This document shows, piece after piece, positions 37,250 to 43,301 of a DNA stretch of 47,571 nucleotides. The position numbers and the translations under genes were made by a program. The notes under the pieces are model-generated. The model saw nothing but the letters and a program-made list of their open reading frames with translations. It searched no databases and was not told where the DNA came from. Each line of letters begins with the position of its first letter. Positions within the stretch are counted from its first letter, which is position 1. Source of the stretch: a virus. The DNA lies in the UHGV virus genome UHGV-2008342. One strand, 5' to 3'.

Positions 37250-38700
37250 GACTTAAGAATCTACCCTATGAATGGATATGCACTCAACCGAATCGATCTT
37301 GGTTTCAATCTTTTTTATCGGGATCAGGCTTCTTTTTAGGTAACTTCGGGGGCTTAACTTGCTGATGACTTTGCGTTCGGCGCGTAAGCCAGGGATGGTC
37401 AGCTTTAGGTTTAACATAGTATTTTGAGCGTAAATCAATACGGGCATTATCCACTCGTTCATGGACACTCTTTTCATCATCCAGTGGTATAGGCTCCGGG
37501 CCATCAACATACTTTTCCCAGCCCAGCGCTTTCCCGTCATACAGAACGTTAATTTCACCGTCAAAGTTCTCGCATACAGTAACAACCGAATGCCTAAGTC
37601 GATATCCCCGGCCCTCACTGCGTACCTGAAACGCACTGCTTTTGTACTGGAAAGTGAGATTTTTAGACAGAACGCGCTTCGCCTGTAGGCTGAAGATATA
37701 ACCCAGTTCCTCTTCAGAATGGTGCACATCAAGATGAGCATTATCAGTAGTACGAGGCGACGTAGCGAACCGGTTGTTATAGGCTTCAATAAAGGTCGGC
37801 AACCATGCATTTGCTGTTTCAATATCACTGATATTCTGAAGCCGCATTTCTTTGACCAGCCTGTCCTGTAGTGTCTGATTGGCGCGCTCTACCCGCCCTT
37901 TTGCCTGCGGGCTGTTGGCATGGATTGGCTCGATGCCCAGTGTCTTTATCGCACGAGTGAACTGGGTCAGCTCACCTTCCCGCTCTGGGTTATTTACCCT
38001 GAATATACTGTGTCTATCAGAGTAGAGAGCGAGCGGTACGCCATGATCATTAAGGTAACCCCGGAGGGTTTCCATGTAAGCCCGGGTTGTTTCAGCAGGC
38101 ACAAAACGCAACGCCATCAACGCACTGGTGGTATCATCAATGAAAACGATCAGTGTACATCTGGGGCCTCGATTTTCAAACCAGTCATGAGGTGAGCCAT
38201 CAATCTGGATCAGTTCACCGTAAGATGGTCGTCGCATGCGGCGTTGATATATACGGGCAATTTTACGACGGCGTTCACGCCATACCCCCCTCTTCTATCA
38301 TCCACTTTCTGAGAGTTTCAACGGATAAAGATAAACCGTGTATCTCGCGCAATTTTTCGCACGCAAACGTAGGTCCAAAATCAGCGTAACGGCCTTTGAG
38401 GAGTGAAATTACTGTTGCTCTGAATTCAGTAGAAAAGGAATTATTAGGACGCTTTCCACGTCGGTGGGAAACCAGACCAGAAGGCCCTTCATTTCTATAC
38501 CGTTGCACCAGACGTTTAACCTGCCGAATAGAAATGCCAATGCGTGCCGCAGCTTGTTCCTGAGTAATATGTCGATTAATTGACTCCTGAATAATCTGAA
38601 GTCGGTGGAGTTCCTTATGACTCATCGTAACAGTTTCTTTGGTCATGAAAAATCCCCCAGAGAATTGTCTGGGGACATTTTAGAATGGTTCAAAGGGGAC
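37250..38700 (-). mobile_element. insertion sequence with HTH plus rve-type DDE transposase; family not determined, ends approximate
   Basis: Transposase-like coding region 37305-38646 in the flxA-to-replication interval, where I recall no IS in K-12 Qin. Terminal inverted repeats not identified by eye. Confidence 0.6.
37305..38646 (-). pseudogene. transposase split into an HTH ORF (38275-38646) and an rve/integrase-core ORF (37305-38237) by a frame change at a G6 run
   Basis: The HTH frame ends ...KWMIEEGGMA-stop. The catalytic frame is open upstream of its ATG (VWRERRRKIARIYQRRMRRPSYGELIQIDGSPHDWFENRG) and carries DDE-type residues and the SPQAKGRVERANQTLQDRL motif. The frames meet at GAGGGGGGT. 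Confidence 0.6.
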
Positions 38701-40222: not shown

Positions 40223-40669
40223 TTATCGTTTTTTCCCTGTTCGTTGACAGATAACAGGCTTTCTATCTGTCAGTGCCAGAATCTGGCTTACCGGTATTTG
40301 CGTTTCATTCCATTAAAAAATCAGAACGCCGTGCGGCCTCAACACCCGAAAAGCTTCTTTAAATCTCTGTCGCAAATCATCACGCCAGGCATCTTTATTC
40401 AGCCGTCCATATTTCTTTCCCATCCAGGCGTTATCACCAACACGCTCAAGATGCGGAGGGTCTAATACAACCATCGAAAAAGATGCGTCTGCAAATGATA
40501 ATGCACGAAAATCTGCGATAATGTCAGGGCTGATAATCAAGCGTCTCCCATTGCGTAATGTGTATCCTTCTTTTCTGATATCGCTAAATATCGCCCGTTC
40601 GTCAGACTTATCGAACCAGAACATGCGGCTGCCACAGCACATATCAAGAATGGTTGCCGGTGCACTCAC
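40223..40669 (-). pseudogene. SAM-dependent DNA methyltransferase interrupted by an in-frame TAA
   Basis: 118-aa ORF with a DMCCGS motif-I-like segment and a DPPH motif-IV-like segment, ending ...HGVLIF-TAA. The same frame continues WNETQIPVSQILALTDRKPVICQRTGKKR for 29 codons. Confidence 0.55.
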
Positions 40670-41088
40670 TGCGCCACGTCCTGAAAATTACCCTGATAGA
40701 AAGCCAGTATGCGCTGCATAACTTCGCTCTTCCGGCACTCGCGACAGATTATGTTTAGGCGACTGTCGTAGCGACGTATTTCTCCGTCAGGTGATGACCA
40801 GATAAGGTCCGGATCAACCACAGCAGGTTTCTTCACCTTTGCCCTCGAGAGTTTTTTGCGGGCGTTTTGCCAGTCCTTACGCGCCTGTTCAGAGGGGAAT
40901 AACCCGTAGCCGGAGTTGTATACATCGCCACTGGCTACCAGCTCTCTGGCAAGAACGCTCATCAGATATCTAGTCGCACCTGTTTTAGCTTCCAGTTGCC
41001 GTAACGTCTCACGGCCGCTCTGGCGCACGAGTTCCACCACCTGCCATTTAATTTTTTCCCGCTCTTCTTGTGTAAAAACTTTTGCCAC
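40666..41088 (-). CDS. hypothetical protein (140 aa) immediately downstream of the O-like gene, in the position of a helicase loader
   Basis: MAKVFTQEEREKIKWQVVELVRQSGRETLRQLEAKTGATRYLMSVLARELVASGDVYNSGYG... No Walker motifs, so not P-like or DnaC-like. Confidence 0.5.
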   Translation of the reverse strand: MAKVFTQEEREKIKWQVVELVRQSGRETLRQLEAKTGATRYLMSVLARELVASGDVYNSGYGLFPSEQARKDWQNARKKLSRAKVKKPAVVDPDLIWSSPDGEIRRYDSRLNIICRECRKSEVMQRILAFYQGNFQDVAQ

Positions 41089-41128
41089 AAGTCCCCCTTA
41101 AAATTACCTCATGACCTGAAATCAACAC

Positions 41129-42148
41129 TTATCCTCTGAAACCAGGCGGAATTTCTGTATCCGGTTCAGAAATATGATTAACACAACGCTGCACAGGTGA
41201 ACGTCCCAGGCGGATGACCAGTTCGTCCCATTTTTCGCGGAGCTTTGACGGGCTCATGATGTTTTTTACCCAGAATGGATCTCGCTGAACCCGACCAAAC
41301 ATTTCGCAAATTTGTCTGTGGCTTCTGCCATCCAGCATCCGCATTGTGCGCACGTCATTGGCCCAGGCAGTCCAGTTAGGCTCTTTTGGTCGCATGATCT
41401 CGCCATCATCACTGGCTGCCTGTTCGTAGAGACCCACGATCCGCCCCCAGATCCACTGCGCACACGCCAAATCCTCCCTGCTACCCCACTGGCGTTTTTT
41501 CGCACTAAACACAACCGCGTCGGAGTTCCGGGTTAAAAAATCCTGTTCAGTCGTCTGCGGGTCCGGTTGCGAAGCTTCCGGACGAAAAGTGTTTTTATTC
41601 TCTGTAGTAATCTCTGTTGTATTCTCTGTAAGATCATCAGGCCATTTTGACCCGATGACATTGGGTCGTTTTGAACCAATGGAGCGTTTCATTTTGACCT
41701 CTTCCATCGTGTCATTTTGACCTGATGGAGCGGCGCATTTTGAACCGATGGATTCGCTCAATTTGCCACCATCTAAAAGCTCGCTCCCATAGTTGATCGT
41801 GTAGAAATTGGTCATATCGCGCTTTGATTTATTGAGCTTTTCACAACGCAAAAGCCCCAGCGTTTTCAGACTTGCAAACGCGCGCTTTAACGTTGACTCT
41901 GACCAGAATGGGAACTGTTCCAGCCATTGTTCCGTTGTGTTATAAATCCAGCGAACACCATCACATTCCATGCCGGAGTTGGTATCTCTCAACCAGTAGT
42001 GCAGTTGTTGCAAAACAATGGCTTCGTTTAAGCCAATTTTCATTGCCAGCTGCGTGTTTATAACCAGTGGGCGTTCAGCAAAAAGAAGGCTCATAATTCC
42101 ATCCAGCTTTTTGTTGGTATTGCTGTCGATACGCAAGCTTGAAAGCAA
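41129..42148 (-). CDS. replication initiator, lambda O-like replisome organiser
   Basis: 339-aa ORF in the lambda O position. Iteron-type direct repeats and an AT-rich tract lie inside the coding sequence. Start may be an internal Met (MSLLFAERPLV at 42094). Confidence 0.65.
   Translation of the reverse strand: MLSSLRIDSNTNKKLDGIMSLLFAERPLVINTQLAMKIGLNEAIVLQQLHYWLRDTNSGMECDGVRWIYNTTEQWLEQFPFWSESTLKRAFASLKTLGLLRCEKLNKSKRDMTNFYTINYGSELLDGGKLSESIGSKCAAPSGQNDTMEEVKMKRSIGSKRPNVIGSKWPDDLTENTTEITTENKNTFRPEASQPDPQTTEQDFLTRNSDAVVFSAKKRQWGSREDLACAQWIWGRIVGLYEQAASDDGEIMRPKEPNWTAWANDVRTMRMLDGRSHRQICEMFGRVQRDPFWVKNIMSPSKLREKWDELVIRLGRSPVQRCVNHISEPDTEIPPGFRG
41585..41780. repeat. ori: candidate origin of replication: 5-6 iterons with a roughly 24-bp period plus an adjacent AT-rich tract with short repeats
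   Basis: Repeats CCATTTTGACCCGATG / GTCGTTTTGAACCAATGGAG / TTCATTTTGACCTCTTCCATCG / GTCATTTTGACCTGATGGAG / GCATTTTGAACCGATGGA at 41641-41760. Then TTCTCTGTAGTAATCTCTGTTGTATTCTCTGTAAG at 41585-41640. Confidence 0.65.
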
Positions 42149-42596
42149 TTGCTTTTTCTATAAGTTCGTCAGTTTCACGATCCACTACGGCAGGATCAGC
42201 AAAAAGCAGTCCGGACTCCACCACATCGCCATATTCTTTGTTTAACCCGGCGATCATGCACGTGATGCTTTTTCCGTCAGTAATTTCACGATACAACCTG
42301 AAATCACTAATCCGGATAGCCTCCATAATCGCAGGCACTAGCGCCGTGAACTTTTCACGCTTATCCCTGGTGTCGATAGCCTTCCAGCGTTCGAATATCT
42401 TCACTCGATTAACACCAAGCGCTCGCTGATCAACCGCGCCACCTTCATCTGTGACACGCTGAACATCGATGTTCGGGCGCTCTTTCAAAGCCCAGAATGC
42501 TTCAGTGATTAATATCGTCGCCTGCTCCTGTGTCATTCCTGGTCGACATATCCAGGCATCCAGAGCCTCACGAGCCTGTTCAGGAGTGATTTTCAT
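42075..42596 (-). CDS. early protein in the cII/YdaT position between the cro-like gene and O
   Basis: 173-aa ORF MKITPEQAREALDAWICRPGMTQEQATILITEAFWALKERPNIDVQRV... Its length (96+77) suggests it is the intact form of the K-12 ydfX/ydfW fragments; that is inference. Confidence 0.5.
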   Translation of the reverse strand: MKITPEQAREALDAWICRPGMTQEQATILITEAFWALKERPNIDVQRVTDEGGAVDQRALGVNRVKIFERWKAIDTRDKREKFTALVPAIMEAIRISDFRLYREITDGKSITCMIAGLNKEYGDVVESGLLFADPAVVDRETDELIEKAIAFKLAYRQQYQQKAGWNYEPSFC

Positions 42597-42810
42597 TGTT
42601 CAACCGCCCCGCCCGCTTCGTCTTACGATATTCATCATAAACTTTGGGATCATACTGAAGCTCCCCGCCAGATGCCTCCTGTAGACGCATCGCGCGACCT
42701 TCGGGAACTAAATCCCCTTTCCAGCTATAAAGCGAAGCCAAACGAATACCTGCTGCTTGTGCAAGTTTTGTTTTTGAACCGAAATACAAAAGAGCGTCAG
42801 TTTTAAGCAT
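42580..42810 (-). CDS. dicC: DicC, cro-like regulator
   Basis: 76 aa MLKTDALLYFGSKTKLAQAAGIRLASLYSWKGDLVPEGRAMRLQEASGGELQYDPKVYDEYRK. Divergent from dicA. Confidence 0.85.
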   Translation of the reverse strand: MLKTDALLYFGSKTKLAQAAGIRLASLYSWKGDLVPEGRAMRLQEASGGELQYDPKVYDEYRKTKRAGRLNNENHS

Positions 42811-42893: not shown

Positions 42894-43301
42894 ATGGAAA
42901 CAAAAAATTTAACTATCGGCGAACGCATCAGGTATCGTCGGAAAAACCTCAAACACACCCAAAGGTCTCTTGCTAAAGCCCTGAAAATCTCCCATGTGTC
43001 TGTATCACAATGGGAACGGGGTGATAGTGAACCTACAGGGAAGAACCTTTTTGCCCTCAGCAAAGTATTGCAATGCTCACCAACATGGATTCTATTTGGC
43101 GATGAAGACAAGCAACCAACACCACCTGTTGAGAAGCCAGTTGCCTTATCCCCCAAAGAACTAGAGCTCCTTGAGCTGTTTAATGCACTGCCAGAATCAG
43201 AACAGGATACCCAGCTCGCCGAAATGCGAGCTCGAGTAAGAAACTTCAATAAACTCTTTGAAGAATTACTAAAAGCCCGTCAGCGGACAAATAAAAGATA
43301 A
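42894..43301 (+). CDS. dicA: DicA, HTH-XRE repressor
   Basis: 135 aa METKNLTIGERIRYRRKNLKHTQRSLAKALKISHVSVSQWERGDSEPTGKNLFALSKVLQCSPTWILFG. Confidence 0.9.
   Translation: METKNLTIGERIRYRRKNLKHTQRSLAKALKISHVSVSQWERGDSEPTGKNLFALSKVLQCSPTWILFGDEDKQPTPPVEKPVALSPKELELLELFNALPESEQDTQLAEMRARVRNFNKLFEELLKARQRTNKR

Follow-up and report, generated by a model that had tools for sequence, protein, structure and literature searches.

The stretch of DNA analysed here (the window), the 47,571-nucleotide (nt) virus genome UHGV-2008342, is a complete Qin/DicA-DicC-type lambdoid prophage of Escherichia coli, whose replication genes comprise an O-like initiator and, downstream of it, an open reading frame (ORF) for a 140-residue DUF977 protein, both on the minus strand. 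They constitute a lambda-type "initiator-solo" replication module, in which the initiator combines a lambda-O-type C-terminal domain with a short DnaT-like tail. The initiator gene (41129..42094, minus strand) encodes 321 residues from an ATG at 42094, the start chosen by the Prokaryotic Genome Annotation Pipeline (PGAP) and in three phage annotations, and its full-length homologues likewise have 321 residues. The protein matches phrog_391 ("replication initiation O-like") at 1.3e-91 and lambda O at 1.9e-23 in phmmer, and it lacks a match among the Pfam or NCBIfam models. A preliminary description, made from the letters alone, had placed both genes correctly, as borne out by the ORF list, phrog_391 and the homology to lambda O, but had extended the module to 42148; that position is indeed the most upstream alternative start, a TTG giving 339 residues, although the annotated start and the homologues point to the ATG.

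The AlphaFold2 model of the initiator consists of a confident winged-helix N-domain (residues 1–105), a disordered linker (110–179), a confident helical C-domain (183–296) and a disordered tail (299–321). The N-domain (41780..42094, minus strand; predicted local distance difference test, pLDDT, ~80–90) is the presumed DNA-binding, iteron-recognizing part. Its only Foldseek matches, all weak (E ≥0.013), are to winged helix-turn-helix (wHTH) folds and Rep N-domains (4pql, 5kbj); it neither matches the Phage_rep_O family (PF04492) in Pfam nor aligns with the N-domain of lambda O, its fold being a different winged helix. The linker (aa 110–179; 41558..41767, minus strand; pLDDT <50) contains repeated SIGSK peptides, and its coding region overlaps the candidate origin described below. 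The helical C-domain (aa 183–296; 41207..41548, minus strand; pLDDT ~90) is a homologue of the C-terminal, P-interacting domain of lambda O: residues 147–294 of the initiator align with residues 135–270 of lambda O at 34% identity over 148 residues (BLASTP, E 1e-26), and conserved motifs are evident in the alignment. A Foldseek search of the full-length model against the PDB returned nothing informative for the C-domain. The earlier suggestion that a loader function might reside in the C-terminal region of the initiator thus finds no support, as BLASTP and AlphaFold2 place there a lambda-O-type helical domain and a disordered tail.

The last 20 residues of this tail (aa 302–321, QRCVNHISEPDTEIPPGFRG; 41132..41191, minus strand) match residues 160–179 of E. 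coli DnaT, the extreme C-terminus of that protein, with 14 of 20 residues identical (70%) and 18 of 20 similar (90%) in BLASTP, and share its terminal ...SEPDxxIPPGFRG-COOH pattern. The corresponding segment of DnaT has been described as a highly flexible 20-residue tail (PMC5778457). Among host proteins DnaT is the sole one with this tail. The resemblance is sharply bounded: the DnaT chains in the PDB (2RU8, 6AEP, 9ZBT) were matched at the tail only (residues 159–179), the match to the NCBIfam DnaT model is confined to it (score 16 against a cutoff of 201), and the three-helix DNA-binding domain of DnaT (PF17948) gave no Pfam match in the initiator. We also considered whether the whole C-domain is homologous to the DnaT domain, which is not supported, since hhalign aligned 15 tail columns alone. 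The tail match by itself accounts for the RAST name "Primosomal protein I", and the current labels of the initiator, this one or "hypothetical protein", call for correction. Lambda O, despite its homologous C-domain, ends in ...LDLTNTDWIYGVDL. Conversely, YdaU of the Rac prophage has an unrelated DUF1376 body and ends in ...SLPDSAIPPGFRG / ...VNTVSLPDSAIPPGFRG, being followed by YdaV; dnaT-dnaC and ydaU-ydaV are both adjacent gene pairs. A literature search returned no paper mentioning the PPGFRG motif.

A candidate origin lies within the linker-coding region of the initiator gene. Repeat searches and pattern counts delineated an array of iterons (41635..41750), with four good and one degenerate copy of ~23 bp (core ATYRGKTCAAAAYG), spaced by 23–24 bp and each showing partial dyad symmetry; the pattern matches five times in the whole window, four of them within the array as against 0.32 expected. 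Adjoining the iterons is an A+T-rich stretch with a 24-bp direct repeat (41593..41631), recognized from repeat families and by reading the sequence, which is probably the unwinding region. In lambda ori the annotated iterons are located inside O, and the layout here is the same: both the iterons and the A+T-rich stretch fall within the initiator gene, which marks them as a putative origin. DnaA boxes near the origin are at chance level (three matches in the window versus 4.65 expected), and a single DnaA-box-like 9-mer at 41069–41077, inside the DUF977 gene, is a chance occurrence.

The 140-residue protein (40666..41088, minus strand) belongs to a known family. It matches PF06163 over its full length (5.1e-29, residues 1–136 against 1–134 of 134), as the profile search proposed in the preliminary description brought out, and phrog_142 ("Ren-like exclusion protein") at 1.6e-47, and PGAP names it a "DUF977 family protein". 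With lambda Ren it shares a C-terminal motif (10 of 20 residues identical), and AlphaFold2 and Foldseek indicate a MarR/GntR-like N-terminal wHTH and a small low-confidence domain, with no P-loop fold. It contains no Walker A motif and has no phmmer match to DnaC, YdaV, lambda P or DnaB at E<=10; neither the Walker A/B core and DnaC/YdaV similarity of a DnaC/IstB-type AAA+ loader nor any Pfam replication-protein family, as expected of a lambda P loader, could be recovered, DUF977 being the only Pfam assignment. The initial view of this protein as neither lambda-P-like nor DnaC-like therefore holds. In the sister phages described below DUF977 lies downstream of a DnaC-like loader, which indicates that it fills the ren slot rather than the loader slot. 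Judged from its family, position and fold, it is a Ren-like nin-region protein in the lambda ren slot with no part in helicase loading, and its current label "LygF" should be corrected. A literature search found no paper giving a function for DUF977.

A six-frame ORF scan of the window revealed nothing resembling DnaC, YdaV or lambda P at E<=10, and hence no lambda-P-type gene immediately downstream of the initiator. Likewise, tblastn searches with DnaC, YdaV, lambda P and DnaB recovered nothing below E 0.2 in the whole window, and were also negative in the complete genomes of PhiR42_1, HannyBb and mEp460_ev081, with positive controls scoring between 1e-70 and 1e-166. The absence of a recognizable loader, first remarked for the module, thus extends to the entire window. 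The preliminary description had further envisaged that the 140-residue protein might prove to be a known nin-region protein with a separate loader elsewhere; the former is the case (DUF977, phrog_142, ren slot), whereas tblastn located no separate loader.

The solo arrangement occurs contiguously in 485 of 5426 complete E. coli genomes, and the loader-less state is also found in HannyBb, an environmental isolate, and mEp460_ev081, a sequenced derivative of mEp460. Phage mEp460 has been reported to complete both lytic and lysogenic cycles (PMC9836094), so that, through these relatives, an initiator and origin with no phage loader or helicase can be assigned to a viable phage. As isolated and propagated phages and 485 E. 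coli genomes share the same arrangement, the loader-less state is a functional and normal configuration rather than a broken one. Loader-less phage replication modules are already known, an initiator-solo category reportedly having been distinguished by Weigel and Seitz in 2006, and the module itself is in this regard ordinary. PMC9144972 cites this classification. What is new is that the loader is polymorphic among close relatives and that the type of tail follows the type of loader.

The first of these emerges from 80 IMG/VR contigs in which the initiator C-domain and tail are at least 91% identical to those of the window. In 41 of them the initiator is directly followed by DUF977, as in the window; the remaining 39 show, after a gap of 7 nt, a gene for a 248-residue DnaC paralogue (YdaV-like), a YdaW-like gene and then DUF977. 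The cassette occupies the position of the short spacer (41089..41128) that separates the initiator and DUF977 genes in the window. Thus, in blastn, contig L040 and the window share 93% identity over the initiator gene and 91% from DUF977 onward, with 1558 nt encoding the DnaC paralogue and the YdaW-like gene replacing 37 nt of the window, the breakpoints coinciding with the initiator stop codon and a point just before the DUF977 start. The DnaC paralogue of L040 has 79% identity with Rac YdaV and 47.5% with host DnaC. As the cassette behaves as an insertion or deletion among near-identical relatives, the phage-encoded loader is evidently optional. We had expected the GFRG tail to be anticorrelated with a phage-encoded loader, an expectation contradicted by the DnaC paralogue in about half of the near-identical relatives; the hypothesis was accordingly revised to one in which the tail specifies the DnaC type of loader and a copy in the phage is not obligatory. 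In sister phages the YdaW-like genes encode DUF1627 proteins with MarR-like winged helices (e.g. L101 6394–7056). The idea that YdaW is itself a DUF977 protein proved wrong, as K-12 YdaW (Rac ydaW, L007 4753–5313) has no similarity to the DUF977 protein of the window.

The relationship between tail and loader was investigated across species. Because a scan of IMG/VR for the C-domain yielded close relatives only, diversity was drawn from species-representative genomes, in which 80 loci encoding an O-type C-domain were collected and a loader or helicase was sought within ±6 kb. All 41 loci with Trp/acidic tails (HWNSxEAWENTL, NTDWIxG...) have a lambda-P-like gene, which starts at the initiator stop codon or no more than ~120 nt from it, and none has a DnaC-like gene or lacks a loader. 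The 21 loci with GFRG-type tails present the converse picture: none is associated with a lambda-P-like gene, three with a DnaC-like gene, and 18 with no loader or helicase in this range. The genes that follow solo GFRG initiators vary (DUF977, PerC, ParB-HTH, MT-A70, Dam and DUF1627), and this variety argues against a hidden conserved loader. When the C-domain bodies are arranged by neighbour joining, the GFRG and Trp/acidic classes are interleaved, e.g. L095 (GFRG) lies beside L099 and L100 (Trp/acidic with lambda P), and L114 (GFRG) is nested within a lambda-P clade; tail and loader have thus been swapped together several times independently.

The remaining loci fall outside these two classes. 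The ...QDYRAG..DG.F tail, found at four Duganella/Oxalobacteraceae loci (L162, L164, L165, L167), forms a third class and, like GFRG, goes with loaders of the DnaC type, the DnaC-like gene always coming next, with no lambda-P-like gene and no locus lacking a loader; these hosts are not known to have a chromosomal dnaC. Among the 14 loci with other tails, one (L111) precedes a lambda-P-like gene and 13 lack a loader, mostly bearing long ...WNSIWKQ... C-terminal extensions. At the loci L118–L121, L123–L127, L130, L131 and L134 (Sodalis, Acerihabitans, Edwardsiella, Morganella, Proteus) this extension comprises ~70 residues ending in ...WNSIWKQA..., with no loader or helicase nearby, and may represent a second, different loader-less solution. 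Irrespective of tail class, enterobacterial prophage replication modules are also present on three contigs from metagenome-assembled genomes labelled Bacillota or Veillonella parvula (L089, L090, L148). The C-domain encoded by L089 and L090 is 96% identical to that of the window, and L148 is a more distant (45%) lambda-P-type locus; the labels of these contigs probably reflect bin contamination.

A census of IMG/VR made irrespective of protein family, and limited to ORFs ending in IPPGFRG-stop, collected 79 such ORFs, in which the tail is attached to protein bodies of at least six kinds: the initiator family of the window, DUF1376/YdaU, a 358-residue family with no Pfam model, Phage_rep_O, HTH_36 with Phg_2220_C, and genuine DnaT-domain proteins. 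An adjacent loader was DnaC-like in 38 cases, lambda P in none and DnaB in none, and was absent in ~39. The 358-residue phage family (e.g. L169 1336–2412 and ~27 other IMG/VR loci), which ends in ...CVNHISEPD[NT]EIPPGFRG, has no adjacent loader in 19 cases and a DnaC-like loader in seven, and is probably another initiator family using the same tail. Two further IMG/VR loci (L216 6527–7342 and L225 1889–2716) encode phage proteins of ~270 residues, in which the C-terminal half contains a true DnaT domain (PF17948, ~1e-18) together with the tail and is close to residues 84–179 of host DnaT. This implies that the whole C-terminal module of DnaT circulates in phages.

Prophages of this family abound in E. 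coli, and the 2.7 kb around the replication module match several bovine E. coli chromosomes at 100% identity and Escherichia phage PhiR42_1 at 99.5%. The early-right operon on the minus strand runs from a dicC/cro-like gene through a YdaT/CII-like gene, the initiator, the DUF977 gene and a truncated S-adenosylmethionine (SAM)-dependent methyltransferase to a remnant of the insertion sequence (IS) ISEsa1. Its first gene (42580..42810, minus strand; P22_Cro PF14549, dicC in PGAP) is opposed by a divergent dicA/cI-like repressor gene (42894..43301, plus strand; HTH_3 and Phage_CI_repr, dicA in PGAP). The YdaT/CII-like gene (42075..42596, minus strand; PF06254 and phrog_163), directly upstream of the initiator, overlaps the start of the latter by 20 nt (42075–42094), and this overlap, along with the 7 nt separating the initiator from the DnaC paralogue in sister phages, suggests tight translational coupling along the operon. 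The DNA methyltransferase pseudogene (40313..40669, minus strand; 118 residues, phrog_954 at 1e-59), remarked upon by PGAP as "frameshifted; internal stop" and 157 residues long in relatives, has a GTG start that shares 4 nt with the DUF977 stop codon; it is a downstream nin-region gene outside the replication module. The IS1202-like ISEsa1 remnant (37305–38646), which follows the replication genes within the nin region and is shared with PhiR42_1, comprises a helix-turn-helix ORF (38275–38646) and a truncated transposase (37305–38237).

Taken together, these observations lead us to favour, as a rather probable account, an initiator-solo module that relies on host DnaB supplied via host DnaC, in which the DnaT-like tail docks the initiator onto DnaB-DnaC-type complexes and DUF977 is uninvolved. 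By analogy with the anatomy of lambda, the N-terminal winged helix of the initiator would bind the five iterons in its own gene, beside the A+T-rich stretch. With no phage-encoded loader or helicase, the replicative helicase should be host DnaB delivered by host DnaC, as expected from E. coli biology. The disordered tail ...SEPDTEIPPGFRG, in place of the Trp/acidic tail of lambda O, would couple the origin-bound initiator to the DnaB-DnaC-type complex, contacting either the DnaC-family loader or DnaB itself, and the DnaC paralogue of some sister phages would be an optional extra that the prophage in the window does without. The initial proposal that the host helicase is recruited through a partner different from a lambda-P-like or DnaC-like phage protein is thereby favoured, and given the tail match and the covariation its most likely form is recruitment of DnaC-bound DnaB via the DnaT-like tail.

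Several points weigh against this account. The choice of partner for the tail comes from gene neighbourhood and covariation, that is, from comparison of sequences alone, and the sampled loci are phylogenetically related, so that independent events are fewer than the counts suggest. The absence of a loader was judged by similarity to four reference proteins and by Pfam searches of ten neighbours, and a loader of an unrecognized type is possible. The copy in the window has an IS remnant and pseudogenes, so that it can itself only be presumed viable. Solo and loader-carrying variants have identical tails, so that one and the same tail would need to recognize host DnaC as well as a paralogue with no more than 47.5% identity to it, unless its target is DnaB; DnaC-bound host DnaB as the point of contact would also suit a tail that is near-invariant while the DnaC paralogues are only ~50% identical to each other. 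In DnaT itself the C-terminal 20–26 residues have been tied to trimerization, DnaT 1–161 forming dimers rather than trimers (PMC5778457), and removal of residues 154–179 lowers both the affinity for single-stranded DNA (ssDNA) and the Hill coefficient, which ties the tail to cooperative ssDNA binding (PMC4132743). Finally, a cryo-electron microscopy study of 2026 proposes the N-terminal domain of DnaT, not the tail, as the candidate recruiter of DnaB/DnaC, its preprimosome structures leaving the recruitment step unexplained (PMC13377028). Phage initiators that lack the N-terminal domain of DnaT and nevertheless possess its tail suggest that the tail merits attention as a recruiter.

More tentatively, and as something we hold to be possible rather than probable, the ...[IV]PxGFRG tail might be a portable docking peptide for DnaB-DnaC-type complexes, common to host DnaT and at least six unrelated phage initiator families. 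This would bear on two questions, namely how lambda-type initiators choose their loader and how DnaT recruits DnaB-DnaC in replication restart. If true, the last 10–25 residues of lambda-O-type initiators would constitute an exchangeable "loader address", with Trp/acidic tails directed to lambda P and GFRG tails to DnaC-type loaders, and the tail would provide a physical link for the handover from the PriA-PriB-DnaT preprimosome to DnaB-DnaC. The C-terminal module of DnaT and the dnaT-dnaC operon may then share ancestry with phage initiator-loader cassettes.

Since DnaT, the only host protein with the tail, is a preprimosome subunit, the tail could alternatively act as a DnaT mimic that connects the initiator to the PriA-PriB restart primosome: once it had opened the origin, the initiator would take the place of DnaT or bring in PriA/PriB, with DnaB loaded by the restart route as for phiX174, ColE1 and Mu. 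Restart proteins do serve some phages and plasmids (PMC5778457). The C-terminal domain of DnaT docks PriA via a conserved hydrophobic surface (PMC13377028), but the initiator aligns with DnaT in the tail alone and lacks the three-helix PF17948 domain, the PriB-binding linker and the N-terminal domain. Moreover, contact with PriA would not predict the covariation of tail and loader, and the route still ends in host DnaC-dependent loading of DnaB, thereby overlapping with docking onto DnaB-DnaC. We regard this explanation as unlikely.

The dimers formed by DnaT 1–161 instead of trimers (PMC5778457) and the reduced ssDNA affinity and Hill coefficient upon loss of residues 154–179 (PMC4132743) would also suit a tail that enhances self-association or ssDNA binding as the initiator oligomerizes at the origin, its co-occurrence with DnaC-type loaders merely reflecting modules inherited together. 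Such a role is doubtful, as a disordered tail that is placed on at least six unrelated bodies and swaps several times with the loader on the C-domain tree is more typical of a portable motif for an external partner. It could also be argued that the module is defective, the loader having been deleted, and that the prophage either cannot replicate on its own or needs a helper prophage: sister phages have the DnaC paralogue at exactly the same position, in the window's copy rzpQ is frameshifted, the methyltransferase is truncated and an IS remnant is present, and K-12 Qin is a cryptic prophage. This appears improbable, given that the initiator and DUF977 ORFs are intact and that the loader is also absent from mEp460_ev081, HannyBb, about half of the related viral contigs and 18 of the 21 GFRG-tail loci of other species. 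That DUF977 is a novel type of loader or adaptor for the helicase, taking the place of lambda P or DnaC, as its position directly after the initiator and its apparent translation from the same operon might hint, can practically be dismissed, because it comes after the DnaC paralogue and the YdaW-like gene in loader-carrying relatives, has the C-terminal motif of lambda Ren and belongs to phrog_142 (lambda having both P and Ren), folds as a winged helix with a small low-confidence domain, and is missing from solo GFRG loci of other species, which have PerC, ParB-HTH or methyltransferase genes.

The module can be compared with several known systems. With lambda O-P it shares a two-domain initiator with a disordered linker, the homologous C-domain and a slot for a Ren-like protein after the replication genes; it differs in having no lambda P gene, in an N-domain unrelated to PF04492, and in that its last ~25 residues form a DnaT-type GFRG tail, where lambda O has ...NTDWIYGVDL. 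The Rep proteins of iteron plasmids (pSC101 RepA, R6K pi, RK2 TrfA) are winged-helix, iteron-binding initiators that bring no loader themselves and depend on host DnaB and DnaC, and these plasmids usually also use host DnaA boxes. The N-domain of the initiator resembles the N-domains of such Reps (5kbj, weakly), while its C-domain is of the lambda O type and its origin shows no enrichment in DnaA boxes. DopC and DopE are a domesticated lambda O/P-like pair, of which DopC joins an O-like HTH N-terminus to the DnaT C-terminal motif (Brezellec et al. 2017, PMC5509034); chimeras of this kind have thus been noted before (PMC5509034). DopC is, however, paired with the lambda-P-like DopE and has no iterons, whereas the initiator described here has iterons and a lambda-O C-domain and no partner gene. 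Closer in tail and operon context (cro-like, YdaT-like, initiator) are Rac ydaU-ydaV-ydaW and the sister Qin-type phages, in which a DnaC paralogue, absent here, begins 7 nt after the initiator stop, the YdaU body being of another family (DUF1376). E. coli DnaT (primosomal protein I) differs by its N-terminal domain, acidic linker and PF17948 domain, none of which is present in the initiator; the C-terminal 20 residues are alike and disordered in both, and both proteins would act upstream of the delivery of DnaB-DnaC.

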